Shown here one piece after another: positions 18,713 through 64,000 of a DNA stretch of 64,000 nt. The notes under the pieces are model-generated. The model worked only from the letters and a program-made list of their open reading frames with translations. It had not been told where the DNA came from and ran no database searches. The stretch's first letter is position 1, and each line of letters opens with the position of its first letter. Position numbers and translations under genes: made by a program. Source of the DNA: an uncultured Clostridia bacterium (lineage in GTDB: Bacteria > Acidobacteriota > Aminicenantia > UBA2199); assembly GCA_964465065.1 (NCBI GenBank), contig CAYXHZ010000006.1, forward strand, positions 1,185-65,184. Reading direction: 5' to 3'.

Positions 18713-18760
18713 GTGCATCCTCCTTTGTATAGATAGTCTATCGGTATTCGATTACTATCA

Positions 18761-24419: not shown

Positions 24420-24494
24420 GGTCGGAATTGTACCAGATATGGGGCGGCTACGCAATGGGAAAGATGGAACGAGACCGGCAGGACCGTAAAAAAC

Positions 24495-26792: not shown

Positions 26793-26979
26793 TTCTGGCA
26801 AAGTATAGGCAGCACGCCTGTTTTTGTCAAGAAAGCTCCTGTTTTGGCTTTGTCGCCGGTCCGGGCCGCCATGCCGAAACGCAGCCCGTTCTTCCTGTTG
26901 CGACAGCAGTGAAAACCGAAAAAAAACATGGTAATATTCAGCTACAATCAATCATTCGGCAACGCAACAGGAGGCATCC

Positions 26980-31261: not shown

Positions 31262-31376
31262 GACTGGAGTGTAAGAAGCCACTATGGAAAAGTCAATCCT
31301 CGCACCGGGCAGGCCTGGCGTGACATTGCCATATCACCTGGGTTATCATGGGGAATGAAATCCAGCGGAGGGGCGC

Positions 31377-32576: not shown

Positions 32577-32730
32577 CTGCAGGGCATAGTCCCATCAGAA
32601 ATTCACGGTAATTCAGCGGAATATCGGTTCTGATCAGAAGAAAAAGTGACAGAAAGACAAAAGCGTGTGATCAAAGCGAAAGCAAATGGAATGTTACAGT
32701 GCTATGATTTCAACGGGTCAAGGAGGCAAG

Positions 32731-35563: not shown

Positions 35564-36520
35564 ATGAACAAACAAGGCAAATGGATTTTGATGAGCGTCG
35601 CGCTGCTGAGCCTGGGGCTGACCCTGTACTCGGCAGAGATGCAAAGCGAGAACCGCGCCTTCAGCGGGAAAAAGAGCGTTCGGTTGGAACTGGTCAGCGG
35701 CGATTGCCGGATCAAAACCGTCGGCGGCGACCGGATCGAGGTGAAGCTCAGCTTCAGTTACGACCGAAAATCGTTCACCCCGAAATTCGAGGAACAGGGG
35801 GAAATCCTGGTTCTCGGTGAGGATTTCGACGGCAACAGTTGCCAGGGCGAATCGATCTGGGAAATTTCCCTGCCGGCCAGTACGGGCATCGAGTTCCGCT
35901 CGGCCTCTGGCAATTTAGTGATCAGCGGCGTTCAAAACGGTATCGAGGCCCACTCGGCCTCCGGCAACATCGAGCTCCGGGAAATCGGCGGCCCGGTGTC
36001 GCTGCACACCGCCAGCGGAAACATCAGCTTGAAAGACATCGGCGGCGACATCAACGCCCGCTCGGCCAGCGGCGACATCGACATCGAGCAGGTCAACGCC
36101 AAGCTCGTCTGCTGCAAGACGGCCAGCGGAAACATCGGCCTGAACAAGGTCAAGGCCGGACTGAAAATCGCCGGCGCAAGCGGCAACATCAGCGCCCAGG
36201 CTGTCAGCCCGGAGTCCGAGAGCAGTTTCAAAACCGCATCAGGCAATGTCGCGGTGCAGCTGGCCTCCGCCCTGAAGGCCGACATCACGCTGGCCTCGGC
36301 TTCCGGGGACGCCTGCCTGGATTTCAACGGTCAGCCCATGGATGGCAGCTTCGAGTTGACCGCCCGCAAGGGCCGCCCCATCCTGTCCCCGTTCAAATTC
36401 GACCGGGAAGAGGAATTCGAGCAAAACGACCAGACCTACGTCAAAAAGACAAAGGTTCAAAAGTCGGCCAGCCCCAAAATCACGGTGAAAACCGCTTCCG
36501 GAAAGGCCGAAGTCAAATAG
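35564..36520 (+). CDS. DUF4097 (LiaF C-terminal-like, beta-helical 'putative adhesin') exported protein
   Basis: Signal peptide MNKQGKWILMSVALLSLGLTLYSA, then about 10 tandem roughly 20-aa repeats (S/T)ASGN(I/V)... typical of DUF4097. Confidence 0.65.
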   Translation: MNKQGKWILMSVALLSLGLTLYSAEMQSENRAFSGKKSVRLELVSGDCRIKTVGGDRIEVKLSFSYDRKSFTPKFEEQGEILVLGEDFDGNSCQGESIWEISLPASTGIEFRSASGNLVISGVQNGIEAHSASGNIELREIGGPVSLHTASGNISLKDIGGDINARSASGDIDIEQVNAKLVCCKTASGNIGLNKVKAGLKIAGASGNISAQAVSPESESSFKTASGNVAVQLASALKADITLASASGDACLDFNGQPMDGSFELTARKGRPILSPFKFDREEEFEQNDQTYVKKTKVQKSASPKITVKTASGKAEVK

Positions 36521-36528
36521 TCATCGCA

Positions 36529-36550
36529 GGGGCTTGATCCATCAAGCCCC
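36529..36550 (+). terminator. Hairpin GGGGCTTGAT-cc-ATCAAGCCCC just after the DUF4097 stop
   Basis: Perfect 10-bp stem; the downstream sequence is only weakly T-rich. Confidence 0.35.
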
Positions 36551-36582
36551 GCTCCTTCCTGAATCTCATTCGACCCAAAGCT

Positions 36583-36610
36583 GAAACAAAAGCAGTCGCC
36601 GATTCGTACC
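36583..36610 (+). promoter_or_regulatory. ECF (sigmaW-like) promoter candidate cTGAAAC-N17-CGTACC upstream of the M13 peptidase gene
   Basis: ctGAAACaaaagcagtcgccgattCGTACCaattttt, about 40 nt upstream of the ATG at 36649. Same pattern as the degP and ECF-sigma upstream regions. Confidence 0.35.
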
Positions 36611-36648
36611 AATTTTTTGAGCTTGAGATCTACAGCTAGGAGACATAT

Positions 36649-38706
36649 ATGAAAATTTCCGTACAAAAGTTCCGCACTGTTCTGTTTTGGCTCGTCTTCA
36701 CACTGGTTTCGACCGACTCGGCATTCCTGGTCGCCGACGACACGAAGACACCGGCTCTGGACAAGAACAACATGGATGTATCCGTCAGACCCGGCGATGA
36801 TTTCTACCGCTACGCCAACGGTCTGTGGATCAAGAGATTCAATCTGCCCGACGACCGCAGTTCCTACGATGCCTTCGATCAGGTACGCGAGCAGAACCGC
36901 GACCGTCTGCATGCCCTGTGCCAGGAACTGGCCGCCACGCCCGGCCGGTTTCAAACGGGCAGCCCGGCGCAGAAGATCGGCGATTTCTACGCTACGGCCA
37001 TGGACACGGAAACCATCGAAAAACTGGGCTATGAGCCGTTGCAGGAAGAGCTGAAGCGCATCGCCGCCTTGAGCGATGTTAAAAGCCTGCTCGCCTTGCT
37101 GGCAGAATTTCACCGCAACGGCCTGGGCGCTCTCTTCGGTGGCGGAGTCATGGCCGATCTGGCCAATTCCAAGGCTACCGCCTATTACCTGGCCCAGACC
37201 GGACTCGGACTCTCCGACCGGGATTATTACACCCGGGACGATGCCGACGCCCAGCGCATCCGCCGCGAGTACCTGATCCACATCGCCAAGATGATGCAGC
37301 TCATCGGCGACAGTTCGCAACAGGCCGAGCAGGCGGCCAAGACGGTCATGGCCATCGAAACCCGCCTTGCCAAAGCTTCCAAAACCCGGGTCGAGATGCG
37401 CGATATCCCCGGCCTGTACAACAAGATGAGTATTACCCAGCTCCAGTCCCACTGTCCCCAGGTGGACTGGACCGCCTATTTCCAGGCCATCGCCGGCCGG
37501 GAAATCCCCGAAGTCGTCGTCATGTCCCCCAAGTTCTACAAGGAGATGGGTCTGATGCTGCAGGAAGTCCCGATCGCCGACTGGCGCTGCTACCTGCGCT
37601 GGCACCTGACCACCTTCTGCGCAGATTATTTGAGTTCGGACTTCGTCAACGAGGATTTCCGCTTCTTCGACCAGATCATGGAAGGCACCAAGGAGATCCA
37701 GGAACGCTGGAAACGCATGACCAACCTGACCAGCGACTGTCTGGACGAGATCATGGGTCAGATGTACGTGGAAAAATACTTCCCGCCTGCAGCCAAACAG
37801 CGCATGGCCCAGATGGCCGCCAATATCAAGCAGGCCCTGGAAGCCCGCCTGAAATCGGTCAGCTGGATGGGTGAAGAAACCAAAAAAGAGGCCCTGGCCA
37901 AGCTGGCGGCCATGAAGGTCGAGGTCGGTTACCCCGACAAGTGGCAGGATTACAGCAAGCTGGAGGTCAAGCGCGACGGATTTCTGGCCAACATCAGACG
38001 CTACGGCCGCTTCAACTTCGAAAAAAACATGCAGGAATACGGCAAGCCGGCCGACCACAGCAAGTGGGACATGCCGCCGCAGGTCGTCAACGCCGCCTAC
38101 AACCCGATCTTCAACCGCATGGTCTTCCCGGCGGGCATCCTGCAGGCCCCCTTCTTCTTCATGGACGCCGACGACGCCATGAACTACGGCGCCATCGGCA
38201 TGGCCATCGGCCACGAGATGAGCCACGGTTTCGACGACCAGGGCCGAAATTTCGACAGGGAAGGCAATCTGCGCGACTGGTGGACTCAGCAGGACGCAGC
38301 CGAGTTCAAGAAAAAGACCCAGGTGCTCGTCGACCAGTACAGCGCCTTCACCGCCGTGGGCGATGTCAAGGTCAACGGTGAACTCGCCCTGGGCGAAAGC
38401 ATCGCCGATTTCGCCGGTCTGACCATCGCCTATGATGCCTACCGCCTGTCTCTGGCCGGCAAAGAACCGGAACCCATCGACGGTCTCAGCGGCGGACAGC
38501 GCTTCTTTCTGGCCTTCGCCCAACTGTGGCGCGGCAAGATCCGCGACGAGGCGCTCAAGCGCATGGTCAGCGAGGACGTCCACCCCTGGGGCGAGTTCCG
38601 GGTCAATGGAGCCCCGTTCAACGTGCCCGCCTTTTACGAACTCTTCCAAATCAAAGAAGGGGACAAACTGTACCGCAAACCCGAGCAACGCGCCGTGATC
38701 TGGTAA
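36649..38706 (+). CDS. M13-family zinc metalloendopeptidase (neprilysin/PepO-like), exported
   Basis: IGHEMSHGFDDQG (HExxH) and GESIADFAGL (the ENIAD-type motif). Signal/TM N-terminus. 685 aa. Confidence 0.85.
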   Translation: MKISVQKFRTVLFWLVFTLVSTDSAFLVADDTKTPALDKNNMDVSVRPGDDFYRYANGLWIKRFNLPDDRSSYDAFDQVREQNRDRLHALCQELAATPGRFQTGSPAQKIGDFYATAMDTETIEKLGYEPLQEELKRIAALSDVKSLLALLAEFHRNGLGALFGGGVMADLANSKATAYYLAQTGLGLSDRDYYTRDDADAQRIRREYLIHIAKMMQLIGDSSQQAEQAAKTVMAIETRLAKASKTRVEMRDIPGLYNKMSITQLQSHCPQVDWTAYFQAIAGREIPEVVVMSPKFYKEMGLMLQEVPIADWRCYLRWHLTTFCADYLSSDFVNEDFRFFDQIMEGTKEIQERWKRMTNLTSDCLDEIMGQMYVEKYFPPAAKQRMAQMAANIKQALEARLKSVSWMGEETKKEALAKLAAMKVEVGYPDKWQDYSKLEVKRDGFLANIRRYGRFNFEKNMQEYGKPADHSKWDMPPQVVNAAYNPIFNRMVFPAGILQAPFFFMDADDAMNYGAIGMAIGHEMSHGFDDQGRNFDREGNLRDWWTQQDAAEFKKKTQVLVDQYSAFTAVGDVKVNGELALGESIADFAGLTIAYDAYRLSLAGKEPEPIDGLSGGQRFFLAFAQLWRGKIRDEALKRMVSEDVHPWGEFRVNGAPFNVPAFYELFQIKEGDKLYRKPEQRAVIW

Positions 38707-38732
38707 TACGGTCGTTCTTGCAAACCGCATCC

Positions 38733-38849: not shown

Positions 38850-41690
38850 ATGCAGTCACGCTTCTGGCTGAAACCGTTGCTTATCGCCCAAATGCTGTTT
38901 TCCATCACCCTATCGGCCCAAATCCGCCTAGCTCTGCTTCCGGTCGACACTCCGACCGCTCTGCCGGCGGTCAACTCCGACATACTGATCCTGCGGGAAC
39001 TGAGTTGGCAGACGGCCATCGGCTCCGATCCCAGCCCCATCTCCGCCGGATCGCAACCGCTTCTGCTGCGTCTCCGCTTTCCCGACGAGGGCGTGACCAT
39101 CGGTGACAGCGAACTCGATCGGCTGGAGATCTTCCTACAGCAAAACCCGGCCATCGACGCCATCATTCTCGATCTGGGCACCTTTAAACCGGCCAGCGAC
39201 CAGATGAATTACCTGCTCAAGCGGATTTCCAGCCTGATCAAAGGGGTCAAGACGGATTTTAAAATCGGCCTGGAGGCCGATGACCTGGATTCGCTGCTGG
39301 AAGCGATCGTCACCCAGAAACTGAGTTCCTACCTCGATGCCCTGGTCGTGTCATCGGCCGACAACGCCCTGCAGGAAAAGATCATGACCCGCCTGCCCGA
39401 GCTCAAGCTCTGGGAGCGCCTGAGCCCCAATCCGGGCACAGATACGGAAACCGCCCGGCTGATCACGCGTCTGCTCAACCGGCCGCTGTTCATGACCAAC
39501 ACCACTTCCCTCTACCTGTGCGAAAGTCCGGCCAGCGCCGAATGCCTGCATACCCTGGACCGACTGATGCCCTACCTGAGCATGGGACTCATCGACCACA
39601 TGGAAGTCGTCAACCTGCAGGAAGAAAAGGGCAGCGTCCGACCGTTGCCGCTCTACTACAAGCACGACGGCGTGTCGCCGGTGATCATGGCCGTCATCGA
39701 CCAGGCCGGGAAAAAATCGATCCAGCTGACCCCCGGAGTCTACGAAAACGCCCTGGTCACCGACCTGCAGACCGGAGCGCAGAACCGCGAGAAGATCGGC
39801 CGGCACAGCCGCAGCTTCAGGATCCAGCTGAATCCCTCCATATATGTCATCGAATTGAGCCCCCGCGATGAGCTCAAACGCCAGGTCATCGAGGTCGGCG
39901 TCAATTCCGAACGCCAGTTGAGCGCCGAGGAAATCGTCGCCAAGGCCCGTGCCTGGATGACCATGCAGAGCCGTCGGCTGCACTGCTTCATTGCCGATAT
40001 GAGCGTCAACTACAGCCTCACCGTCGGCAACCTCAACGAAACCTTCGATCTGCTCATCCGCGGACCGTACTTCAGCTCCCGCGGCGAACCGGCCGATTGG
40101 GTGCAACAGGATTTTTTTCTCAACCGTATCAAATGGAAATCGAAGAAAATACCCAAAATTCCGCTGCTGCAACCCGAGAAGGTCAGCGTCGTCCCCCTGG
40201 AAATCGAACTCAGCGAACTCTACCAGTACCAGCGCAGCCATGACGAAACCCTTGCCGGGACAGCGGTCTACGTCATCCATTTCAAACCCGGACCGGGCCT
40301 GAAGGATCAAAGCGCCTACGAAGGCCGCCTGTGGATCAGCAAAAAGGACGGCGCCATCCTGCAGAAGGAACTGAACCAGCTCAACCTCAAAGGCGAAGTG
40401 CTCTCCAACGTCGAGACGCAAACCATCAGTCCCATGGGCAGCGACGGAGAAATCTGCCTGCCGACAAGGCTGGTGGGCCACCAGATTTTCAACATCGCCG
40501 GTACGCTCACCCACATCGAGAAACTGATCGAATACGACAATATCCGCATCAATCCCGTGGATTTCACCGCCCAGCGCCAGGCGGCCCGCGATTCGGACGC
40601 CCGCATGGTACGGGACACCGACCGAGGCCTGCGTTACCTGGTCAAGGACAGCCAGAGCGGCGAACGCACCGTGGAATGGCAGCAGAGCAAAACGCAGACC
40701 GCCGCCATTTTCGGGAGCTTTTACGACAGTTCCTACGAATTTCCGGTGCCGCTGGCCGGCATCAATTACCTCAATTTCGACCTCGGTGGCCGTGGCAAGG
40801 GCCGCCAGACCAACATTTTTTTCGCCGGAGCCATGCTGCTGGCCAACTACACCGATCCGTCGCTGTTCGGCAGCGGTATCAGTTTCAACGCCAACCTCAA
40901 CGGCATCGCCTTCGCATCGCGGAACAAAATCTACCGCAACCTGGACCTGAGCCCCGGCGAGACCATCAAGGACCAGTCCTTCAAGAGTTTCATCAGTTTC
41001 GGCTTTTCACTGACCCGCAACGTCAAGCTGACCGCCGTCCTTGGCGCGGATTATTACATGTACAGCCGCCACAAGGAAGACACCAACCCGGAGTTCATCC
41101 TGCCCCGCGACAATCTGACCGGCAGCATCCGTCTCAAGCTGGACGCCAGTTTCAAGGGTTTCACCCTGTCCTGCTGGGCCGATTACGGCCGGCGCAGCGA
41201 TTGGGGTTTCTGGGGTCTGCCCGAAAACGACGATTACCTGGCCAGCCAGAAAGGCTTTTACCGCTTTCGGGTCATCGCCGCCAAGGACTTCCACCTGTCC
41301 CTGTTCCGCAAGATCCAGACCAAGTTCACCTGGCTGGACAGCTACCGCGTGGACCGCTTCAGCGCCTACAAGTTCGGCTTTTTCAGCGAGCTGCGCGTCA
41401 GCGGCTTCAACTCCGGAACCATTCGCGCCGAACGGGCGCTGATGTTCAATCTGGCATACAGCTATCAATTGAGCCAGCATTTCGGGCTGGAATTCAAGTA
41501 CGATTCCGTTCTGGCCAGCAACAGCAGCGAAGAGATGAGCCGGCAATATTTTTCAGGCATAGCCGCCGCCGCCAGTACCGCCCTGCCCTTCTGGGACAAC
41601 ATGCTGGTCAAGTTAGAAGCCGGACTGCCGGTGGTCAGCCACGGCGTCAAAGGCTTTGTTCTCTACCTGATGCTGCTCAAGATGTTCTGA
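38850..41690 (+). CDS. Large (946 aa) exported protein, function unknown; predicted beta-rich C-terminal (possible OM barrel) region
   Basis: Signal peptide MQSRFWLKPLLIAQMLFSITLSA. No catalytic motif recognised. The C-terminal 350 aa has an alternating aromatic/beta pattern and ends ..VLYLMLLKMF. Confidence 0.5.
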   Translation: MQSRFWLKPLLIAQMLFSITLSAQIRLALLPVDTPTALPAVNSDILILRELSWQTAIGSDPSPISAGSQPLLLRLRFPDEGVTIGDSELDRLEIFLQQNPAIDAIILDLGTFKPASDQMNYLLKRISSLIKGVKTDFKIGLEADDLDSLLEAIVTQKLSSYLDALVVSSADNALQEKIMTRLPELKLWERLSPNPGTDTETARLITRLLNRPLFMTNTTSLYLCESPASAECLHTLDRLMPYLSMGLIDHMEVVNLQEEKGSVRPLPLYYKHDGVSPVIMAVIDQAGKKSIQLTPGVYENALVTDLQTGAQNREKIGRHSRSFRIQLNPSIYVIELSPRDELKRQVIEVGVNSERQLSAEEIVAKARAWMTMQSRRLHCFIADMSVNYSLTVGNLNETFDLLIRGPYFSSRGEPADWVQQDFFLNRIKWKSKKIPKIPLLQPEKVSVVPLEIELSELYQYQRSHDETLAGTAVYVIHFKPGPGLKDQSAYEGRLWISKKDGAILQKELNQLNLKGEVLSNVETQTISPMGSDGEICLPTRLVGHQIFNIAGTLTHIEKLIEYDNIRINPVDFTAQRQAARDSDARMVRDTDRGLRYLVKDSQSGERTVEWQQSKTQTAAIFGSFYDSSYEFPVPLAGINYLNFDLGGRGKGRQTNIFFAGAMLLANYTDPSLFGSGISFNANLNGIAFASRNKIYRNLDLSPGETIKDQSFKSFISFGFSLTRNVKLTAVLGADYYMYSRHKEDTNPEFILPRDNLTGSIRLKLDASFKGFTLSCWADYGRRSDWGFWGLPENDDYLASQKGFYRFRVIAAKDFHLSLFRKIQTKFTWLDSYRVDRFSAYKFGFFSELRVSGFNSGTIRAERALMFNLAYSYQLSQHFGLEFKYDSVLASNSSEEMSRQYFSGIAAAASTALPFWDNMLVKLEAGLPVVSHGVKGFVLYLMLLKMF

Positions 41691-48676: not shown

Positions 48677-49303
48677 TTACAGGAATGCCACTGTCAAGCC
48701 CAGCGAGGCCGTAAGTCCACCCAGGTTGACATTTCCACGGCTCCCCCTGCCGGCCGGAATCGAAGAATACTCCAGCTGCAGCCGGGCATCCAGGTTATGC
48801 CCGAATCGGTAGCGGCCGCCACCCTGAACGAAAAACCCCGCCTTGTCGTTCTCGCCGGTCCAATTGACCGAGGGCCACTCCTCCTTGTAGAAGCTGTACG
48901 ATGCGCCAACACCCAGAAAGGGCGCCAAACGGGACCCAGAAAAAAAGTAATCGCCGCCCAGACGCACGGTCAGCATGCGCCATTGGACAGGATAGGACTC
49001 TTCCACCTGTTTGAAACCCTCGACCACCGTTTCCCCCTGGCACTTCATATGACGGACGGCTGCAAACAAGGACAGTCTGCGGCTGACCTTCCATCCCAAA
49101 GACAATTCCAGCGGCAGTATCGTCCGATCGTACACATCGCGGAATTCGCTCTGCCCGGGATAAAAATAGCCAAACGCCGCTCCGAGGAAAATCCTCCGGG
49201 TCGGCTTTTCCGCACCTGGAGCAGCGGCCGGAATCAGAAAAAGCGCGACCAGAAGCAATACCGAAGCCAACCCGTGTCCCCGCTCAGCCGTTGTTCTCGT
49301 CAT
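48677..49303 (-). CDS. Small outer-membrane beta-barrel (OmpW/OmpA-barrel-like) protein
   Basis: Start at MTRTTAERGHGLASVLLLVALFLIPAAAPGA (GGAGG SD). Alternating beta pattern; C-terminal ..LTASLGLTVAFL ends in Phe. Confidence 0.5.
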   Translation of the reverse strand: MTRTTAERGHGLASVLLLVALFLIPAAAPGAEKPTRRIFLGAAFGYFYPGQSEFRDVYDRTILPLELSLGWKVSRRLSLFAAVRHMKCQGETVVEGFKQVEESYPVQWRMLTVRLGGDYFFSGSRLAPFLGVGASYSFYKEEWPSVNWTGENDKAGFFVQGGGRYRFGHNLDARLQLEYSSIPAGRGSRGNVNLGGLTASLGLTVAFL

Positions 49304-50900
49304 CTCGAACCTCCACGGAATAGCCGCTTTCCTCGCCGGTTTCGTCAAGCGCCGTCAATACGTAATAATAATGCTGATCGGCGGCCAGAAACCGATCCAC
49401 AAATGCAGTCTGTTCCAGTAAAGATTCGTTGACGCGCACATAGGGCCCGGATTGCCGAGTCGAGCGGTATACGTTGTAGCCCAGTACCGGTCTCTGGTTG
49501 GCCTGCCAGTTCAGATAAACCGTTTTCATTCTGTAGAAAACCGCCGCCGACACCTGACAACGTCCCTGCAATCCGGTCGGAACTTCCGGTTCCGCAACCG
49601 ATTGGGCCAGATCAACCAGCACGGCCAGCGACGCCTTGACCACATCCGTGGCATAATCGAGATCCAGGGTGTCCACGGTGTCGCTTGTCTGGTGATAATA
49701 GGGGTTGTCGTCGGTCTCGATACCGCAAAGCGCCGAATAGCCCTGATCCCAGAAAGACGAATGATCGCTCCAGGTCAGGGAGGCGTCGACGGTTTTAACG
49801 AGATTCACGTTCACCAGCGGCTGGGCCACGGCGATGAAACGATCGGCCAGCCACTGCGACTTGCCGTTGACGATCAGAGACAGCTCGCCGGCCCCTGCAT
49901 GGTTGTAGGCGATCATGTCCAGGTTGATCACGGCCGTGATGGTACGATTGTGATCCCGGGCCTTGCGAGCGTAGTCCCCGCTGCCATAAAGGCCCCACTC
50001 TTCCGCCGAAACGCAAAGCAGAACGACCGGATTCTTAAATTTCCGCTTGGCCAGGATCCGGGCGATTTCGAGTACCGCCGCCGTACCGCTGGCGTTGTCG
50101 TCGGCCCCCGGAGCATCGGTATCCATGCTGTCGCTGTAGGAATCGTAATGGGCACACGCCAGGATAGTCTGGGTGGAGCCGGTCGTTCCGGGAATCAGGG
50201 CCACAATGTTCCGACTCCGGTACCGTGATTCAAAGGAAAACGTTTCCGCTTTGGCATCCAGTCCCAAAGACCGGAAACGATTCAGAAGGAATTCACCCGC
50301 CTCTTCACACTGGGCGGTGGAGGCGTACCGAGTCTTGAAATTCTGCAGAGCCACGATATCGCTTCGCACCCTCTGCTTTGAAACCTGCGTCAGCAGTTCC
50401 GGAATCAGCGGTCCGGTCCGGATCTGGATGCGCTTTGCGGCCTGCCGATCCGTACGCGCGGTCTCGGGAATACGTAGCGGCCGGGACAGTGAAAGCGCTT
50501 TCAGGTGGTAGGGCTGGCTCAACCGGTTCCGAAAATCACGATCGGAGCTCCAGATCAACCAGATATGCTCTTCCAGAGGATAGGCCCCGATTCCATCCGG
50601 TCCGGCGGCCTGCGGGTAGTGCAACAGGTAAAAAGATGCCCGATCGTCCGGCTGGACAATCACCTTGTAGGCGATCCCGGCCCGACCGAGTCCCGGCAGA
50701 GCCGATGGTCTGGAACTGACCAGGAAACAGCTTTCAAGTTCCTGCAGCACCGCGGCTCCGGCCGCATCGATCCGCTGCAGATCTACAGTCTCCGTTTTGT
50801 CCACTCTCAGCAGCAGCGCGTTTTCCACGACCGACGGCGAGGCCGGCAGCAACAAACAGCCAGCAACCAGCAATATGCCCCAAAGCATTCCCATTTTCAT
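49284..50900 (-). CDS. M28-family zinc peptidase with a C-terminal fibronectin-III-like domain, exported
   Basis: Start at MKMGMLWGILLVAGCLLL. ..CAHYDSYS.., ..DDNASGTAAVLEIAR.. (M28 Zn ligands), ..SAEEWGLYGS... FN3-like tail ..YNVYRSTRQSGPYVRV... Confidence 0.75.
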   Translation of the reverse strand: MKMGMLWGILLVAGCLLLPASPSVVENALLLRVDKTETVDLQRIDAAGAAVLQELESCFLVSSRPSALPGLGRAGIAYKVIVQPDDRASFYLLHYPQAAGPDGIGAYPLEEHIWLIWSSDRDFRNRLSQPYHLKALSLSRPLRIPETARTDRQAAKRIQIRTGPLIPELLTQVSKQRVRSDIVALQNFKTRYASTAQCEEAGEFLLNRFRSLGLDAKAETFSFESRYRSRNIVALIPGTTGSTQTILACAHYDSYSDSMDTDAPGADDNASGTAAVLEIARILAKRKFKNPVVLLCVSAEEWGLYGSGDYARKARDHNRTITAVINLDMIAYNHAGAGELSLIVNGKSQWLADRFIAVAQPLVNVNLVKTVDASLTWSDHSSFWDQGYSALCGIETDDNPYYHQTSDTVDTLDLDYATDVVKASLAVLVDLAQSVAEPEVPTGLQGRCQVSAAVFYRMKTVYLNWQANQRPVLGYNVYRSTRQSGPYVRVNESLLEQTAFVDRFLAADQHYYYVLTALDETGEESGYSVEVRDDENNG

Positions 50901-50943
50901 GCTCTTCTCCCCTTGGAACCGTTGTGACTTCCGCCCTCGGCCA

Positions 50944-52326
50944 TCAGCCGTGAATCGAGAAACCGCCGATCTGGGCCAGGGCTTCCCAGACATTCTCGCC
51001 CAAAGTGGGATGGATGGTGATCAGATCCCGGAACTCCTCGACCTTGAGCTGCCGGGTCACGGCGTAGTTGAGCAGAGGCATCAGTTCACCGGCCTCGGCA
51101 CCCAGGATGTGCGCGCCCACCACGGTTCCGTCGCTTTGGGCCAGAACCTTGACCAGGCCGTTCTTCTCGTCGATGGCGTTGGAACGCGAGCCGGCGGCGT
51201 AAGCGAAGCGGCCGATCCGGATGTCGGCGAATTGCTCCCGGGCCTGGACCTCGGTCAGTCCAATCGAGGCGAATTCCGGGAAGGTGAACACCGCCCCGGG
51301 AACGGGATGATGGACGATCGACCGGCCGGTGGCGATGCGGCGGGCAATGGCTATGGCCTGATGCGAAGCCTTGTGGGCCAGCAGAGGCTGACCGATCAGG
51401 TCGCCGCAGGCGTACACGCCCGGGATATTGGTCTGCAGCTGCTCGTCGACGACCACGAAGCCGCGCTTGTCGACGGCCAGAGCGAGGGCTTCGTCGGCAA
51501 GGCCGCTGCTGCGCGGTTTACGACCTACGGCCAGCAGTACCCGGTCGAAGTGTTCCAATTGCGAGTTTCCTTCCCGGGTCAGCTTGACGGCCACGCCGCC
51601 TCCGGGTTCGTCCAGTACGGGATCGGACAGAACAGTCGAGGTCAGCACCGAGATTTTCTGCTTCTTCAACTCGGCCTGCAACATGTCGGCCAGTTCGACA
51701 TCGCTGCCGGGAACGACATGGTCCAATACCTCCACCACCGTGACCTCGCTGCCCAGGTAAGAGTAGATCTCGGCCATTTCCAGGCCGATGGCCCCGGCGC
51801 CGACGATCAGCAGCCGTGCCGGAATCGAATTCAGTTCCAGCGCCTGATCGGAATTGATCACCCGTTCCCCGTCGGGTTTGAGGAAGGGCAGTGCGGCCGG
51901 TTCCGAACCGGTGCATAAAACGACATGCCCAGCCGAAAAATCACCGAGACCGGCAACGCTCACCCGCCCCGGGGCGGTCAGACGGCCCAAACCGCCGATC
52001 AGTTCGACGCCGTGTTCCTGGAACAGCAGTTCGATGCCCTTGGTCAGTTTGGACACCACCCGTTCTTTGTATTTCTTCAGTTTATCGACGTCCAGTTCAT
52101 AATCCTTCACCGTCAGGCCCGCCTTGGCCAGGTCCTTGAAGGCCTTGACCGATTTCAGCGGGTGCAGCAGCGCCTTGGTCGGGATACAACCCCAGTGCAG
52201 GCAGGTTCCCCCGGCCTTTTCCTTCTCGACGACGGCCGTCTTGAGCCCCAGTTTCGCCGCGGCGATAGCCCCTTCGTAACCGGCCGGACCGCCACCTAGA
52301 AAAATCACATCGTAGTTCATGTTCAC
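50944..52326 (-). CDS. lpdA: Dihydrolipoyl dehydrogenase (E3)
   Basis: YDVIFLGGGPAGYEGAI (FAD), GGTCLHWGCIPTK (redox-active disulfide), LIVGAGAIGLE (NAD). Confidence 0.9.
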   Translation of the reverse strand: MNMNYDVIFLGGGPAGYEGAIAAAKLGLKTAVVEKEKAGGTCLHWGCIPTKALLHPLKSVKAFKDLAKAGLTVKDYELDVDKLKKYKERVVSKLTKGIELLFQEHGVELIGGLGRLTAPGRVSVAGLGDFSAGHVVLCTGSEPAALPFLKPDGERVINSDQALELNSIPARLLIVGAGAIGLEMAEIYSYLGSEVTVVEVLDHVVPGSDVELADMLQAELKKQKISVLTSTVLSDPVLDEPGGGVAVKLTREGNSQLEHFDRVLLAVGRKPRSSGLADEALALAVDKRGFVVVDEQLQTNIPGVYACGDLIGQPLLAHKASHQAIAIARRIATGRSIVHHPVPGAVFTFPEFASIGLTEVQAREQFADIRIGRFAYAAGSRSNAIDEKNGLVKVLAQSDGTVVGAHILGAEAGELMPLLNYAVTRQLKVEEFRDLITIHPTLGENVWEALAQIGGFSIHG

Positions 52327-57884: not shown

Positions 57885-60290
57885 ATGGTCGGCAAAAGCA
57901 CCTGTTTCTTTTTTCCCGCCGTCATTCTGCTCATTATTCTGCCTCTGGCCCCGCTGCGGCTGAACTGGCCGGTCATTGGCCCGCCAATGCTGTTTCTGGT
58001 TATTTCCTACCGTCTTTGCCGTCGTCTCACCCTGCGACGACTCCTGCTCGTCTGCCTGTTCCTGCTGACCTTGCTGGTCATCCGCAATCAACGCTTCACC
58101 AGACTGCAGCTGGCCCAGTCCCTGAATTTTCCCGTTCAGGAATACCTGGACCTGCACGGTACCGTGGCCAGCCAGATTCAGCCCCTGCCCGAGAAGGGAT
58201 TCAGTTTCATGCTGCGCAGCCATAGCATTCAATACCGCAGACGGAAACACGCGCTTGCCCTCAACTTCCAGGTCCGACTGCGACAGGGGCCCTTACCCGA
58301 AGGATTTGCCCGGGGTGCGGAAGTCGCGATCGCCGCGGCATTGTCTCCGCCCCGGGAGCGGTACAATTTCCATATGGCAAACGGTACGGCGCGGCTCCTG
58401 GCCAGCGGTACCGATTGGCTGGCTTCCTGCAAAAGCGCCCACATGATCGAGGTCGTCTCGCCGGCCCCGTCTCACTGGCGTCTGCTGCAAACCTGGCGGG
58501 AGGCCATGGACCGCGCCGTCGACCGCCTGCCGGTACCGGCAAGAAACGACACCTTGACCAAACTGATCATGAAATCGTCTTTTCTGGGTTACCCCTACAC
58601 CGGCGAACCCGATATATACCATGGCTTCATGGTCAGCGGCGGGCTGCACCTGTTGGCCATATCGGGTTCCCACATCGCCCTGATCACCGCATTCACGCTG
58701 TTCCTTTTTTCATGGCTGCCGCCCAACCTGCGCCGTTGGCTCTGCGCCGTCGTAATCCTGCTCTACCTGCTTCAGGCGGCGGCTCCCGTTTCCGCTCAGC
58801 GATCGGCCATCGTCGCCTGGGCCTGGCTCTGGGCCTCGCATCGGCAACGCAAGATGCACTTCACCCATATCCTGGGGCTGTCGGGTTGCCTGGACCTTGC
58901 GTGCAATCCGCTCATCGTTTTTTCGGCCGGCTTTTTCCTGACCTATGCCATCTGTTTCGCGCTGGCCTACTGGGCGGACTGGCTGGGCCTCAGCCCGCAA
59001 GCCCAGCCGCGCCCGCTGCGAACCCGCATCGCGACACTGCTGAAAACCCAGGGCTTGGCGATCCTGACCTCCACGCCGCTGACCCTGCATTTTTTCAACA
59101 ACGCCACCCTGAACGCTCTCCCGGCCGGCATGCTGATGATTCCCCTGTTCAGCCTTCTGCTTCCGGTGGCGGCAGCCTGCCTGCTGCTGTTCATGTTCAT
59201 TCCGGCCAGCGCCGGCGTCAGCCTCTTCCTGCTCAACCCACTGGTCAGCCTGCTGCAGACGACACTGGCCTTCTTTTCCCATTGGGACTGCCTGCTTTTT
59301 TACCGTCAGGCGCCGTCTATCGGCCTGATTCTGGTTTACCTGGCCTTGCTTTTGGGCTGCGGCCCCCTCCTGGGCAGAAAACAGCCCATCCGCATCGGCC
59401 TGCTGCCTCTGCTGGCAGTTATTGTGTTCCTGCTCCTGCCGGACCGACCCTACCGCCCCAGCCGGACCGAACTCCACACCCCGGATATCGGCCAGGGGGA
59501 GATACACGCCCTGATCTTTCCATCCGGAAAAAGCATGCTCATCGATTGTGGGGGAAGCCCGTTTTCCGATCAGCGCTCCGCAACCCAGCTGGTCAGTTCT
59601 TATCTGCTCAACAACCGGATTCATCCACAATGGATCGCCGTATCCCACTTCCACTCCGACCATTGCGGCACGCTACCCGAACTGATTCGCATATTTGCTC
59701 CCCGGCAGATCCTGCACTCCGAATGCCCGCAGGACAACCCGCTGTTCAACCAGTCCCGAAAAGCCAGCACGAAACGGACGCAGTGGCTCCCCGTCAAGAA
59801 AGGCGACAGCCTGACCATCGACGGCACCCGGCTGCACTGGCTCTACCCGGAACGAATCGCCCCCGCTGCGGCAGAGACGGAAAACGGACATTCCCAGGTC
59901 ATCCACGTCCAGACCCCGGATTTCACCATCCTCCTGTGCGGCGACATCGGCAGCCGCGAGGAATCCCGGCTGCTGGCCTCGGTGCCCGAAATCGACATTC
60001 TCAAAGTTCCCCATCACGGTTCGAAAGGTTCTTCATCCATGGATTTCCTGAAAACCGTCTCGCCCAAGTTGGCCCTCTTCCATTGCGACCGGCACAACCC
60101 GTTTCATTTCCCGCACCCGACCGTGCTGGACCGCTACCGGCAACTCGGCATCCCCTGCCGGTTCACCTGGCAGGGTGGTTTGATCATCAGCGGCATTCAC
60201 AGTCGAATCCGCCTGCGGTTGGCCTCGAAAACCCTGATCCCGGCGTTTGAACCACTTGTCCCAGACAGGGCCGCCATTCTTGATTTTTAA
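57885..60290 (+). CDS. comEC: ComEC/Rec2-family DNA internalization competence protein (DUF4131 + competence TM domain + C-terminal MBL fold)
   Basis: 801 aa, polytopic. The C-terminal MBL block is ..IAVSHFHSDHCG.., ..HHGSKGSS... Confidence 0.8.
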   Translation: MVGKSTCFFFPAVILLIILPLAPLRLNWPVIGPPMLFLVISYRLCRRLTLRRLLLVCLFLLTLLVIRNQRFTRLQLAQSLNFPVQEYLDLHGTVASQIQPLPEKGFSFMLRSHSIQYRRRKHALALNFQVRLRQGPLPEGFARGAEVAIAAALSPPRERYNFHMANGTARLLASGTDWLASCKSAHMIEVVSPAPSHWRLLQTWREAMDRAVDRLPVPARNDTLTKLIMKSSFLGYPYTGEPDIYHGFMVSGGLHLLAISGSHIALITAFTLFLFSWLPPNLRRWLCAVVILLYLLQAAAPVSAQRSAIVAWAWLWASHRQRKMHFTHILGLSGCLDLACNPLIVFSAGFFLTYAICFALAYWADWLGLSPQAQPRPLRTRIATLLKTQGLAILTSTPLTLHFFNNATLNALPAGMLMIPLFSLLLPVAAACLLLFMFIPASAGVSLFLLNPLVSLLQTTLAFFSHWDCLLFYRQAPSIGLILVYLALLLGCGPLLGRKQPIRIGLLPLLAVIVFLLLPDRPYRPSRTELHTPDIGQGEIHALIFPSGKSMLIDCGGSPFSDQRSATQLVSSYLLNNRIHPQWIAVSHFHSDHCGTLPELIRIFAPRQILHSECPQDNPLFNQSRKASTKRTQWLPVKKGDSLTIDGTRLHWLYPERIAPAAAETENGHSQVIHVQTPDFTILLCGDIGSREESRLLASVPEIDILKVPHHGSKGSSSMDFLKTVSPKLALFHCDRHNPFHFPHPTVLDRYRQLGIPCRFTWQGGLIISGIHSRIRLRLASKTLIPAFEPLVPDRAAILDF

Positions 60291-60314
60291 GTCCTGTTAC
60301 ACTATATTGACGGA

Positions 60315-60686
60315 ATGGCAGGCAAGAATATTTTAATAATCGACGACGAGGACTATATACGCGACCTTCTGGTCGACATGCTGACACTTGAAGGGTTTTT
60401 CTGTAACTCGGCGGCTACAACCGACCAGGCTTTGCAGCTACTGGCGCAAGCCGAGAACGCCTACAGCCTGATTCTGCTGGACCGTCACCTGGAGAACCAC
60501 AGCAGTGACGCTTTTCTGACCTGGGCACGGGAACAGCCGGATCTCCCTCCTGTCGTGCTGTTGACCGGAGACCACGATATCGGCGCCGACGAAGCCCGGC
60601 AGCTGGGTGCCCGGGATATTTTCTACAAGCCGTTCCAGATCAACGGACTGCTGACGCGAATCAAAGAATTGTTGGAGCAATCATGA
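60315..60686 (+). CDS. Single-domain CheY-like response regulator (receiver only)
   Basis: NILIIDDEDYIRDLL (acidic pocket), ..LILLDRHL.. (phospho-acceptor Asp), ..LTGD.., ..KPF... 123 aa with no output domain. ATGA overlap with the next gene. Confidence 0.8.
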   Translation: MAGKNILIIDDEDYIRDLLVDMLTLEGFFCNSAATTDQALQLLAQAENAYSLILLDRHLENHSSDAFLTWAREQPDLPPVVLLTGDHDIGADEARQLGARDIFYKPFQINGLLTRIKELLEQS

Positions 60687-62449
60687 ATATGACCATGCGG
60701 ATTTTCACCTCCCTTCTCCTGCTGAGCGTTTTCATCCCGGCCGCAACCGAGATCATGCCGTTGTCCGAGATCCGACCCGGCATGAAAGGCATCGGCAAGA
60801 CTATTTTCAAGGGATCCGAAATCGAACAGTTCGATTTCGAGATTCTGGGCATCATGGAAAACAACATGGGCCCCGGTAAATCGCTGATCTGGGCAGAGCT
60901 GAAGAATCCCATTCTGGCCGAAACCGGGGTCATGCAGGGCATGAGCGGCAGCCCGCTGTACATCGACGGCAAAATCATCGGTGCCGTGGCCTACGGCATG
61001 CCGTTTGCCAAAAGGCCCATCGCCGGTATCACCCCCATCCAGGACATGTTGACCAGCTCAAGTTACAACACTCCGACCATCAGCATCGAAATTTCCAACA
61101 TTTCCGCCGACTTCGACAAACAAAGCCTGCAGAACCTGTCGGACCGGCTGATGCAGGCCCTGGCCAGCCGTCTTCCTGGTCTAGGCGACAATACCCTGAC
61201 CCCCATCGAGCTGATCCGCACCGGTAACCGGTCGCTGCAGCAGACAAACCAGTTCATTCCCCTGCAGGGCGGCGCTCAGATTCAATCCTCGCTGACACCC
61301 AAACCGACCCCCGGCGACAAATTCAGCCTGCACGAAGCCGACGCTGTAGCCATCCCGTTGATCAGCGGCGACATGGAGTACACGGTTTCCGGGACCGTCA
61401 CCTACGTCAAAGACAAAGATGTCTACATGTTCGGACACCCTTTCTACAACCTGGGCACCGTCAATTTCCCCATGCACAAGGCCGAAGTGATCACCTCGTT
61501 CCCCTCCTACAACAACTCCTTCAAGATGCACCGTACCGGCCAGATGGTCGGCACCGTCAAACAGGACCGGCTATCCTCGGTCTACGGAGTACTGGGGGAA
61601 AAACCGGTGCTCATGCCGATGAAGCTGTTCCTGCGCAACCGCAACAAGACCGTCAATCTGGAGATCATCAACCACCCGCTTTTCAACCCGGTCCTGACCG
61701 GCCTGGCCCTGCTCAACACCTTCAGTTCCGAATACCAGGATTTCGGCTACCAGTCCCTGCGCGTCAACGGCCGCATTTTCATTGAAGGGCAAAAAAACAT
61801 TGAAATATCGGATTTTTACAGCGGAACTACCGCCTACAACGAATTCTCGAACCTGATGATCATGGTACAGTACCTGCTGCTCAACAACCAGGAGATGCCG
61901 GCTAAAATCCAGAAAATAGACTTCGAATTCGAAGGTTTCGAGGCCCTGCGCCGCTCGGCAATCCGCGACGTCATCATCAACAAACACCAATTCGCCCCCG
62001 GTGAGATCATCAATCTGCAAATCACCCTGCAGAACGAACGCGGACCGCTGGTCAGCGAGCAGATCAGCATCGAGACGCCCAGGCTGCCCGACGGCAGCAC
62101 CTTTTTTCTGTTCGTTGGCGGCAAGGACGAAATGCTCAATTTCGATTCCAAGAACGTGAAGTCCGACTTCATGCCCGACAGCCTGCGGGCCATCACCCGG
62201 GCCATCAACAACCTGCGCAAGAACAACCGTATCTACGTCAAACTGGCCTCCCCGCAGAAAGGTCTGTTCGTCAACGGCTACGAATACTCGCAGGTGCCGG
62301 ATACCCTCGGTTCCGTTTTCAATTTCAACCCCCACGAACAAACCCCGCCAAACGATATCAAGATGTCGACATTGACAGAGTACCAGGTCGACATCCCCAA
62401 TGTCGTCAGCGGCTGGAAATCGTTCAAACTGACCATCAAAGAGAGGTAA
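60683..62449 (+). CDS. SpoIVB/S55-type serine-peptidase-like protein with an apparently permuted domain order plus a roughly 250-aa C-terminal extension
   Basis: [25 protein letters not shown] near residue 95 matches the SpoIVB Ser378 block [35 protein letters not shown] (approx. residue 190) resembles IKVIPGGQSIG at the start of the PDZ domain. [20 protein letters not shown] (approx. residue 250) resembles the His236 block [21 protein letters not shown]. In SpoIVB the His block precedes the Ser block. The comparison is from memory of the B. subtilis sequence. Confidence 0.45.
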   Translation: [588 protein letters not shown]

Positions 62450-62450
62450 C

Positions 62451-64000
62451 ATGCCTAGCATCCACCGTCTGTATACCCCCGTTCTGCTGGCCCTGCTCGC
62501 CATCCGCATCGGCGCAGTGGAAGTCAAGAAGATCACCGTAAACTCCTTCGATCTCTTCGAGAAGGGATCGTTCAGCTCGGCGCTTCTCGATCATCAGGGA
62601 CGCCTGAGAATCGGCCCGGGCTCTTCCCGGATAAACGGTCCGGCCAAAGAATTCTACCTCTGCTTTGACATCAGCGAACAGGGCGACATTCTGCTGGGCT
62701 GCGGCCACGGAGCCGAGGTCTTCAAGATCACCCCCCAAAGCGACAAGCCCGTTTCCATTTATAAAGGCGAGGAGCCGGACGTTCATGCTGTGCTGCAGCA
62801 TTCCAGTGGCGCCGTCATCGCCGCCACCGGGCCCAACGGCAAATTGATCAGCATCGACGCCAAGGGCAACAGCACCGTTCTGTTCGATCCCAAAGAACGC
62901 TTCATATGGGACATGGTCGAGGACCAGGACGGATCGCTCCTCGTTTCCGTCGGCGGCAACGGCGGCGTGTACCGGGTCAGCCTGTCGGGACAGGTCAGCA
63001 AACTCTTCGAGACCGAGGATCCGCACATCACCACCCTGCATCTGTCCCAGGACAAGATCCTGTACGCAGGCAGCGGCGAACGCGGCATCGTCTACATCAT
63101 CACCAAGAATAAAACCAAGGTCCTCTACGATTCGGTGTACAAGGAAATCCGCGGCATCACCTCCGACAACAAGGCCAATGTCTATTTCGCCGCCACCTAT
63201 TACGACGAAGAGGCCAACAAGCGCAGTGACAGCGATCCCAACCTGATCAAGACCACCGCCAAGGGCACCCCGGTCACCGGCTTGCGCAGCGTAGTCTACC
63301 AGCACCAGGCCAACGGCAACACCGAGGAAATATTCAGTCTGAAGAACGAAACCATTTTCGATATCGATTTCGACCTGAAGTCCCAGACCCTGCTGGTTGC
63401 CACCGGCAATTCCGGACGGGTATTCCAGGTCAAGCCGAACGGCGAATACGCCATCGTCTACGAGTCGGATGCCGCCCAGGTTTTCCGGGTCAGCACCAAA
63501 GGTCCGGGATCGACCATGATCACCAACAATTCGGCCGGCATCGTCCGCATCAACGATAACGACAGCAACAGCGGCAGCTATGTCTCCGACATCTTCGACC
63601 TCAGCATCCAGTCCAGTATCGGCAGACTGTACTGGCAGGATTACAAACCGGACGACGCACAGGTCGCCGTTTCGATCCGGGCCGGAAATTCCAGCAAACC
63701 CGACAACACCTGGACCGAATGGCTGCCCCCTTTCCTGGACAGCCGGGGTGCGGCCACCAACCTGTCCGCCTACCGCTTCGTTCAGTTCAAGGTCAATCTG
63801 AAGGCGGCCAGCAACGGCAAGGAACCCTTTCTGGAACAGTTGCACTTCTATTACTTGCAGAACAACCTATCCCCGCGCCTGAGCTCGGTGCAGGTTTTTT
63901 CCAGGGGCTCAAAAAAGGACGACCTGTCAGCCAAACCCGAAGAAAAAAACCCGGGCAACAATTCGATTGCCCCCAAAGACCTGGTCGTCACCTGGTCCTG
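62451..64000 (+). CDS. Partial CDS (runs off window end): exported beta-propeller-like repeat protein
   Basis: ATG at 62451, 1 nt after the previous stop. MPSIHRLYTPVLLALLAIRIGA (signal), then repeated ..DG.L..G..G.VY.. motifs. Open through position 63990 with GC3-rich codon use. Absent from the ORF track because no stop lies within the window; the minus-strand ORF 62436..63845 is its antisense artefact. Confidence 0.45.
   Translation, partial: MPSIHRLYTPVLLALLAIRIGAVEVKKITVNSFDLFEKGSFSSALLDHQGRLRIGPGSSRINGPAKEFYLCFDISEQGDILLGCGHGAEVFKITPQSDKPVSIYKGEEPDVHAVLQHSSGAVIAATGPNGKLISIDAKGNSTVLFDPKERFIWDMVEDQDGSLLVSVGGNGGVYRVSLSGQVSKLFETEDPHITTLHLSQDKILYAGSGERGIVYIITKNKTKVLYDSVYKEIRGITSDNKANVYFAATYYDEEANKRSDSDPNLIKTTAKGTPVTGLRSVVYQHQANGNTEEIFSLKNETIFDIDFDLKSQTLLVATGNSGRVFQVKPNGEYAIVYESDAAQVFRVSTKGPGSTMITNNSAGIVRINDNDSNSGSYVSDIFDLSIQSSIGRLYWQDYKPDDAQVAVSIRAGNSSKPDNTWTEWLPPFLDSRGAATNLSAYRFVQFKVNLKAASNGKEPFLEQLHFYYLQNNLSPRLSSVQVFSRGSKKDDLSAKPEEKNPGNNSIAPKDLVVTWS

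Follow-up and report, generated by a model that had tools for sequence, protein, structure and literature searches.

The stretch of DNA analysed here, called the window below, comprises 64,000 nucleotides (nt) of contig CAYXHZ010000006.1, from an assembly entitled uncultured Clostridia bacterium (GCA_964465065.1) and placed in the Aminicenantia by its GTDB lineage. Three genes lie at its downstream end on the same strand and in this order: a receiver-only response regulator, an S55-like serine protease and a beta-propeller protein, referred to here as P3. A first-pass annotation, made from the sequence alone, had proposed these three open reading frames (ORFs), with an ATGA overlap at one junction and a spacing of 1 nt at the other, and its coordinates and junctions were exact. 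The features of the locus, several of them from AlphaFold2 (AF2) models, are as follows.

60315-60686, forward strand: receiver-only response regulator gene, 123 amino acids (aa), confirmed by an ORF check
60683-62449, forward strand: S55-like serine protease gene, 588 aa plus stop
60683-60745, forward strand: protease residues 1-21, N-terminal hydrophobic signal-like segment (AF2 helix at residues 2-16; segment present in the family consensus)
60746-61036, forward strand: protease residues 22-118, serine barrel of six strands with the motif GMSGSP and the S88 codon at 60944-60946; counterpart of the C-terminal barrel of SpoIVB (PF05580, 9lnf, conservation, hhalign)
61037-61327, forward strand: protease residues 119-215, linker (AF2; the hhalign alignment extends to query residue 124)
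61328-61597, forward strand: protease residues 216-305, histidine barrel of six strands with FGHP containing H252 (61436-61438), D295 (61565-61567) and D230; counterpart of the N-terminal barrel of SpoIVB (conservation, hhalign)
61598-62446, forward strand: protease residues 306-588, C-terminal region, an alpha/beta domain followed by beta-sandwich domains (AF2)
62451-64000, forward strand: P3 gene, 516 codons, open at the window end (residues 1-516 of 679)
N-terminal end of P3, forward strand: signal-like helix, with no transmembrane segment after it (AF2)
62523-63560, forward strand: P3 residues 25-370, seven-bladed propeller (AF2)
63564-63902, forward strand: P3 residues 372-484, beta-sandwich (AF2)
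beyond the window, forward strand: P3 residues 510-679, two immunoglobulin-like (Ig-like) domains (AF2, from contig L001)

The receiver and protease genes share the ATGA at 60683-60686, and the protease stop codon (TAA, 62447-62449) is followed by a single C and then by the P3 start codon at 62451. A Shine-Dalgarno-like GGAG lies 5 nt upstream of the protease ATG, and a Shine-Dalgarno-like GAGAGG precedes the start codon of P3. The full length of P3, 679 aa, was taken from a public contig, L001, which is 99.6% identical to the window.

The protease was assigned by profile comparison, and the description of it as S55-like in the first-pass annotation was borne out. Pfam PF05580 (Peptidase_S55) matched with 43.7 bits (gathering score 25, E 4.2e-11), but the match covers only residues 22-104, corresponding to profile positions 110-192 of 210 and to the serine barrel. 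The equivalog profile for SpoIVB, TIGR02860, gave 41.6 bits against a cutoff of 305 and, therefore, the protein is not a SpoIVB orthologue. No PDZ family match was found anywhere in it. The one solved relative by sequence was SpoIVB (PDB 9lnf, E 6e-6), in the serine barrel only, where G86-M-S88-G-S-P aligns with GM(S378A)GAP of 9lnf and with GMSGSP of SpoIVB fragments. Relatives of the protease carry the NCBI name 'SpoIVB peptidase S55 domain-containing protein'. These relatives are numerous: a 90%-clustered database yielded 1,959 matches, mostly 580-630 aa long, and clustering at 50% identity gave 6,074 clusters at E 1e-3 or better and 1,775 at E 1e-30 or better. The family occurs in at least 589 species-representative genomes.

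Conservation was examined in 141 divergent representatives clustered at 50% or below. S88 and H252 were found in 141/141 sequences, D295 in 139/141 (99%) and D230 in 138/141 (98%), and nearly all of the invariant positions fall within residues 33-118 and 219-305, that is, in the two barrels. Because S88, H252 and D295 are 99-100% conserved in these relatives, the protease is probably an active enzyme.

The order of these residues is opposite to that in SpoIVB. In SpoIVB, for which the MEROPS peptidase unit is 188-426 (PMC3944710), the catalytic H236 precedes the catalytic S378 (PMC12502668), whereas the protease in the window runs from S88 to H252 to D295. The two halves were placed in the SpoIVB order in a synthetic construct that joined residues 205-310 to residues 22-120. 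With this construct, the match to the Pfam S55 profile grew to profile positions 64-192 and the score rose from 43.7 to 49.8 bits. Profiles were then compared through hhalign with an alignment of SpoIVB protease-domain fragments, A5 (n=22), which begin MTFYDP..YGALGH; those of ~208 aa start just before H236. The re-ordered 141-sequence profile aligned collinearly with A5 over 166 columns (Prob 99.2, E 7.3e-20, score 128.0), placing AFGHP on ALGHV, GMSGSP on GMSGSP and the C-terminal ...IE.ML helix on its equivalent, with H252 on H236 and S88 on S378. In native order, only the serine barrel aligned (102 columns, score 114.1). When single barrels were compared with A5, the serine barrel scored 112.3 and the histidine barrel 22.8 (P 0.004), the latter with His on His. 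As a control, 60 column shuffles of the histidine barrel scored 12.6 +/- 2.4 with a maximum of 20.5, so that the real barrel stood above 60/60. In a second control, 30 constructs in which a shuffled histidine barrel was joined to the serine barrel reached at most 117.5, compared to 128.0 for the real one. The barrel swap is supported at the level of sequence by these comparisons, and the signal from the histidine half is modest but reproducible. The linker between the barrels starts with the helix that closes the fold in SpoIVB (aligned to ...HIEWML...) and continues with a second helix and a low-confidence variable stretch.

Other searches with the histidine barrel gave less. A phmmer search of it against the PDB returned spurious lectin matches only, and a Pfam scan of the barrel alone returned nothing. 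A permuted alignment of 16 sequences gained ~28 residues across the junction in hhalign with the histidines unaligned, and global mode misaligned them. The profile of the permuted alignment had 9lnf as its sole match in the PDB, extending just across the junction. A literature search found no description of a permuted chymotrypsin-fold protease, although a negative result of this kind is weak evidence.

The AF2 model of the protease (predicted local distance difference test, pLDDT, 75; predicted template-modelling score, pTM, 0.73) contains two six-stranded barrels. The first, at residues 22-118, follows a helix at residues 2-16 and has S88 between its third and fourth strands. Two helices (119-127 and 146-163) come next, residues 165-211 have a pLDDT below 50, and in the second barrel, at residues 216-305, H252 directly follows strand 3 and D295 lies at the turn between strands 5 and 6. 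H252 and D295 are 43 residues apart; the His-Asp spacing in chymotrypsin is 45. We take the positions of H252, D295 and S88 to be the canonical topological positions of chymotrypsin His57, Asp102 and Ser195. A Foldseek search of the PDB found HtrA and Rv3671c at probability 1.0 over 106-120 columns, with target-relative template-modelling scores of 0.3-0.4, and no full-length solved homologue. For a barrel swap, an aligner that follows sequence order would be expected to return a short alignment of this kind. The C-terminal region, of which 288 residues were scanned, had no Pfam match and belonged to no known family.

SpoIVB (MEROPS S55, Pfam PF05580), the sigma-K checkpoint protease of Bacillus subtilis, is the only characterised S55 member and is a signalling protease (PMC12502668). 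The first-pass annotation had drawn an analogy with it, which failed on the missing PDZ domain, the equivalog score and the reversed order of the catalytic barrels. SpoIVB has a PDZ domain N-terminal to its protease domain, whereas the protease here lacks one and has an extra ~280-residue C-terminal region. SpoIVB works with the SpoIVFA/BofA/SpoIVFB machinery, whereas the protease here is paired with a propeller protein in a non-sporulating diderm host. A role as the SpoIVB orthologue, at the sigma-K checkpoint of an endospore former, does not fit named relatives in the Acidobacteriota and Planctomycetota or the LptF/LptG gene in the window. At the third catalytic position, the invariant D295 is matched in SpoIVB by an invariant Asn (A5 position N70, ~N290; 22 fragments), and SpoIVB T393 aligns with Ala or Ser in the protease family. 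In a 2025 structure of SpoIVB, D363 lies ~24 A from H236 and T393 was proposed as the third residue of a non-canonical triad (PMC12502668). The Asn aligned with D295 is an alternative candidate for this position. Measured against the features of S55, the protease has the profile score and the nucleophilic Ser, shows the His only after the barrels are re-ordered and lacks the His-then-Ser order. It is a new structural variant of the S55 family, inside S55 by profile and catalytic motifs and outside SpoIVB by orthologue test, PDZ and domain order. In the searched literature, S55 in Acidobacteria appeared only in a passing MEROPS count (PMC8841776).

HtrA/DegP/DegS and MarP (Rv3671c), periplasmic serine proteases of the PA clan, resemble the modelled protease in structure, with no detectable sequence similarity. 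They differ from the protease here, which has no PDZ domains and whose barrels are permuted. The window has a separate gene for a canonical DegP, and the hhalign comparison with this DegP was not significant (Prob 1-2%). The link to PA proteases other than S55 is, therefore, a structural one.

Synteny was examined in 80 loci from species-representative genomes and in further loci obtained by exact protein look-up, and adjacency of P3 was counted in those with at least 1.5 kb of downstream sequence. P3 lies directly downstream of the protease gene on the same strand in 64/77 loci, or 62/75 when two loci fetched through P3 are left out. The loci that bear the pair span Aminicenantes, Vicinamibacterales, Blastocatellia, Terriglobia and Bryobacterales, and the pair was also found in one Gemmatales (Planctomycetota) genome. 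The gaps between the two genes are often 0-30 nt or overlaps. When all neighbouring ORFs were clustered, P3 was the only conserved neighbour. The flanks of the pair are varied housekeeping genes (class-II aminotransferase-like, lepA, efp, aroDE, mobA-like), and one protease gene per locus was present in the 87 loci examined, paralogues elsewhere in the genomes not having been searched for. The conserved evolutionary unit is the protease-P3 pair and not a three-gene operon. This and the permutation of the protease domain had been missed by the first-pass annotation.

Two upstream 'families' from the clustering, c16 and c47, were rejected as arginine-rich spurious ORFs typical of DNA with a high guanine-plus-cytosine (GC) content. 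Apart from evident mislabels and the separate case of the Gemmatales genome, the named sources in the species-representative set are all Acidobacteriota. An Acidobacteriota-type locus, with Aminicenantes- or Vicinamibacterales-like neighbours, was also seen in co-assembled metagenome-assembled genomes titled Clostridia, Eubacteriales, Heliomicrobium or Bifidobacterium (L007, L009-L012, L014, L018, L022, L031, L038, L063, L066 and L070). These titles are probably taxonomic mislabels.

The product of the third gene had been described as a propeller protein with a signal-like N-terminus that runs off the window, and this was supported by the AF2 model (pLDDT 88) and by matches to PF07494 (Reg_prop) in 40/47 homologues. 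In the window copy, the propeller matches all fell below the Pfam thresholds; with its homologues and its predicted fold, P3 classes as a beta-propeller protein of the Reg_prop type. Invariant residues of P3 (R410, G412, N413, W421, W424, R442, W515, D523 and W539) are grouped in two domains, the beta-sandwich and the first of the Ig-like domains, and this grouping suggests a conserved binding surface there. Two loops of the model, at residues 256-276 and 488-505, are of low confidence. The window and L001 differ at codon 398 of P3 (63642-63644), which is Y in the window and N in L001; it was the sole amino-acid difference noted between the contigs and reflects variation between strains, in a loop on the surface of the beta-sandwich domain.

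P3 resembles the periplasmic Reg_prop (PF07494) sensor domains of hybrid two-component systems in having a propeller followed by beta-sandwich or Ig-like domains. Unlike them, it lacks a kinase, a receiver and any transmembrane segment beyond its signal-like helix. Pairs of a protease and a partner protein offer another comparison. NlpI is an adaptor for Prc, and tricorn and prolyl oligopeptidase have built-in propellers. CtpA and LbcA form a further protease-adaptor pair (PMC11021448). The logic that all of these share with the locus here is that of a serine protease whose substrates are selected or admitted by a repeat or propeller protein. They differ in that their proteases have other folds (S41, S9) and their adaptors are tetratricopeptide repeat lipoproteins or fused propellers, whereas P3 is separate and apparently soluble, has Ig-like domains and, judging from gene adjacency, may interact with the protease.

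The first gene encodes a receiver-only response regulator, as had been annotated, with 57.5 bits against PF00072 (cutoff 30.2) over its 123 aa. Its codons were checked for D10, D11, D56, T84 and K105, D56 being the phospho-acceptor, and all five are present. They are also invariant in seven receiver orthologues that are only 33-50% identical overall. Because these phosphorylation residues are present and invariant, the protein is, by its sequence, a phosphorylatable single-domain response regulator without an output domain. It shows every feature of that class: the receiver profile, the DD pocket, the phospho-accepting Asp, the T/S and K positions and the lack of an output domain. CheY, DivK and CpdR are likewise receiver-only proteins of ~120 aa with all of the phosphorylation residues, but the gene context here lacks chemotaxis, kinase and ClpXP genes. 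In a PADLOC search, neither the protease nor P3 matched a defence system, and the receiver gave only a generic receiver match.

The receiver gene lies directly upstream of the protease gene in 7/84 loci and is absent from 77/84 protease-carrying loci. The seven loci (L001, L003, L005, L006, L087, L088 and L089) all belong to one Aminicenantes clade, in which the proteases are 48-100% identical to that of the window. The first-pass annotation had expected the three genes to be syntenic in relatives. This was correct within the clade, down to ~48% protease identity (L003, L005, L006 and L087-L089), and wrong outside it, where the receiver is missing. The receiver is a later, clade-specific, co-translated add-on to the protease-P3 pair. 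Within the clade, the block receiver-protease-P3-sucC-sucD is conserved, with a small Fumerase_C gene between P3 and sucC in L087. The gene upstream of the receiver varies: it is ComEC in the window/L001, L003, L005 and L089, and an LptD-like gene or others in L087, L088 and L006. Downstream of sucC-sucD in the clade (L003 13895-21022; L087 10791-14838; L088 11127-15626; L089 7334-10882), there were, in this order, an FHA-GGDEF protein in some members, a ~125 aa protein without a Pfam match and an AI-2E family transporter. L003 additionally has a Ser/Thr kinase beside the FHA-GGDEF protein.

Four further features of the window bear on the expression and setting of the locus.

57885-60290, upstream of the receiver gene: comEC (TIGR00361, 226.7 bits)
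60280-60308, forward strand: sigma-70-like promoter match, TTGATT, a 17 nt spacer and TATATT (consensus scan on L001 3112-3140, mapped to the window)
1905-4220, reverse strand: what appears to be a fused LptF-LptG permease, 771 aa (two LptF_LptG matches, 510 bits)
17243-18718, reverse strand: canonical DegP/HtrA with two PDZ domains (window ORF scan)

The promoter-like site matches at 9/12 positions and ends 6 nt before the receiver ATG, and no Shine-Dalgarno-like motif precedes the receiver start codon. As a consensus match, the site together with the missing motif suggests a leaderless or near-leaderless transcript, with a very short or absent leader. By chance, 3.1 such sites would be expected in the region, in which six were found, and the evidence is accordingly weak. 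In L001, P3 is followed after a 70 nt gap by sucC. Since a scan for terminator-like sites found no convincing terminator between P3 and sucC, the transcript may be longer than three genes. Antisense ORFs at 61571-62536 (reverse strand, 321 aa) and 62436-63845 (reverse strand, 469 aa) overlap the protease and P3 genes and were rejected as genes, being the usual open-frame artefacts of 55-60% GC DNA.

The host had been taken for a diderm that produces lipopolysaccharide (LPS), in agreement with the fused LptF/LptG gene and with LptD- and LptC-like genes in relatives. Both exported proteins, the protease and P3, open with a hydrophobic helix. Because of these signal-like helices and the LPS-transport genes (LptF/LptG), both proteins are likely to be periplasmic.

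We consider it fairly probable that the locus is a two-gene envelope module, in which an active, barrel-swapped S55 protease acts with a propeller partner, the receiver is a clade add-on and the neighbouring comEC is incidental. In such a module, the product of the protease gene would be exported and catalytically competent, a serine endopeptidase with a chymotrypsin fold from the SpoIVB/S55 lineage. Its barrels would be encoded in reverse, with the serine barrel, a ~100-residue linker and the histidine/aspartate barrel carrying a triad of S88, H252 and D295, and ~280 residues of non-catalytic domains would follow. The P3 gene would produce an exported protein of propeller, beta-sandwich and two Ig-like domains. 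The two proteins would act together in the periplasm, where P3 may be a substrate-selecting or activating partner, as in NlpI/Prc and LbcA/CtpA or as with the propellers built into tricorn and prolyl oligopeptidase. In the Aminicenantes clade, the receiver would have been added in front, translationally coupled, and would be made together with the module; it does not appear to be positioned for transcriptional control of the module and presumably could not touch the exported proteins directly. Several observations weigh against this reading. The protease model from AF2 is of no more than moderate confidence, with a pLDDT of 75 and of 61-63 for the other four models. The histidine barrel alone is only weakly similar to SpoIVB (hhalign P 0.004) and was undetected by Pfam, by phmmer and by the shallower 16-sequence profile. 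The predicted signal-peptide cleavage sites depart from the canonical A-x-A. The partnership does not depend on linkage in cis, as 13/77 loci, in Pyrinomonadaceae and some Terriglobia, have no adjacent P3. Finally, conserved adjacency is no proof of interaction, and P3 could be a substrate or simply co-expressed.

Another possible explanation, which we regard as unlikely, is that the protease is a lone, general degradative or quality-control enzyme of the envelope, for instance in peptide scavenging, and that P3 is a co-transcribed substrate or cargo. Exported peptidases abound in the window and its relatives (S10, M28, M1 and DegP in the window), the 13 loci just mentioned keep the protease without an adjacent P3, and the low-confidence loops of P3 could be cleavage sites. 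However, the same-strand adjacency is kept across the phylum and in Planctomycetota while all other neighbours change, which is typical of functionally coupled pairs. The mostly housekeeping flanks and the single protease gene per locus are also unlike an expanded nutritional protease family. It is very improbable that the protein is a catalytically dead pseudo-protease, with one SpoIVB-like barrel serving as a binding module and an unrelated second barrel. Such a protein would explain why Pfam detects only half of the S55 domain and why structure searches align only ~100 residues, and the Ala or Ser aligned to SpoIVB T393 would be in keeping with it. Against this, all of the 141 divergent sequences keep Ser and His and 99% of them keep D295, conservation is concentrated in both barrels, and the protein is collinear with SpoIVB after re-ordering, with His on His.

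The first-pass annotation had proposed a regulated, SpoIVB-like periplasmic proteolytic switch under two-component control through the receiver and tied to DNA uptake by comEC. The receiver does keep all of its phospho-acceptor residues, its gene shows translational coupling with that of the protease in seven divergent members of the clade, ComEC lies upstream in four of these (window/L001, L003, L005 and L089), and SpoIVB is a signalling protease (PMC12502668). We nevertheless find this proposal improbable. A system in which a two-component pair controls the operon would have a cognate histidine kinase, as well as a regulator whose output is enzymatic or DNA binding, and neither was found. 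The receiver, at 123 aa, has no DNA-binding or other output domain, and there is no kinase nearby: the 20 largest other ORFs of the window gave no HisKA or HATPase match, the small ORFs being unscanned, and no histidine kinase was present among the annotated genes of L003, L087, L088 and L089. The receiver also lies downstream of its own promoter-like site, within the operon that it would regulate, and the protease-P3 pair persists without it, the receiver being missing from 77/84 loci. Because it has no output domain and no nearby kinase and is in a different compartment, cytoplasmic and co-transcribed with two exported proteins, the receiver cannot be taken for 'the regulator' of the operon. 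The link to comEC was not sustained either, as ComEC is upstream in some clade members only and is replaced by LptD-like or other genes in L087, L088 and L006. The same proposal needs a SpoIVB-like protease, and the protein here has no PDZ domain and scores 41.6 against the equivalog cutoff of 305.

The two-gene module could be a wider matter. It is possible, though doubtful, that Acidobacteriota and parts of Planctomycetota share an unrecognised periplasmic protease machine, in which a circularly permuted S55 enzyme with a full Ser-His-Asp triad is gated or activated by P3 in housekeeping envelope biogenesis or signalling. If so, the position of the invariant Asp, at which SpoIVB has an invariant Asn, would be the true third catalytic position of SpoIVB, and this would address the 'non-canonical triad' of the 2025 structure. 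The aligned Asp/Asn position provides a testable hypothesis for the third catalytic residue of SpoIVB. S55 has been regarded as sporulation-specific through SpoIVB, and the family described here is a much larger sister family in non-sporulating diderms, found across the Acidobacteriota classes sampled. Since domain annotation sees half of the catalytic domain, such proteins could be read as fragments or pseudo-enzymes. The protease would also provide a natural example of permutation tolerance in the chymotrypsin fold, and the pair is a conserved envelope module, as yet unstudied, of a phylum that is among the most abundant in soil and sediment.

The rest of the window was also surveyed. Scanned in full against Rfam, the window showed no RNA family. 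Three large ORFs had no Pfam match at E 1e-5 or better: 23700-26912 (forward strand, 1070 aa), 38850-41690 (forward strand, 946 aa) and 36457-38730 (reverse strand, 757 aa). The coding strand of the last one is uncertain, since an ORF of 685 aa overlaps it on the other strand. Further peptidase genes, for an M1 peptidase, an S10 carboxypeptidase and an M28 peptidase, lie at 29219-31282 (reverse strand), 32686-34455 (forward strand) and 49284-50993 (reverse strand). The genes at 19001-20227 and 31377-32576, both on the forward strand, encode a FliK-like protein (Flg_hook domain) and a hemerythrin-PAS_10 protein.

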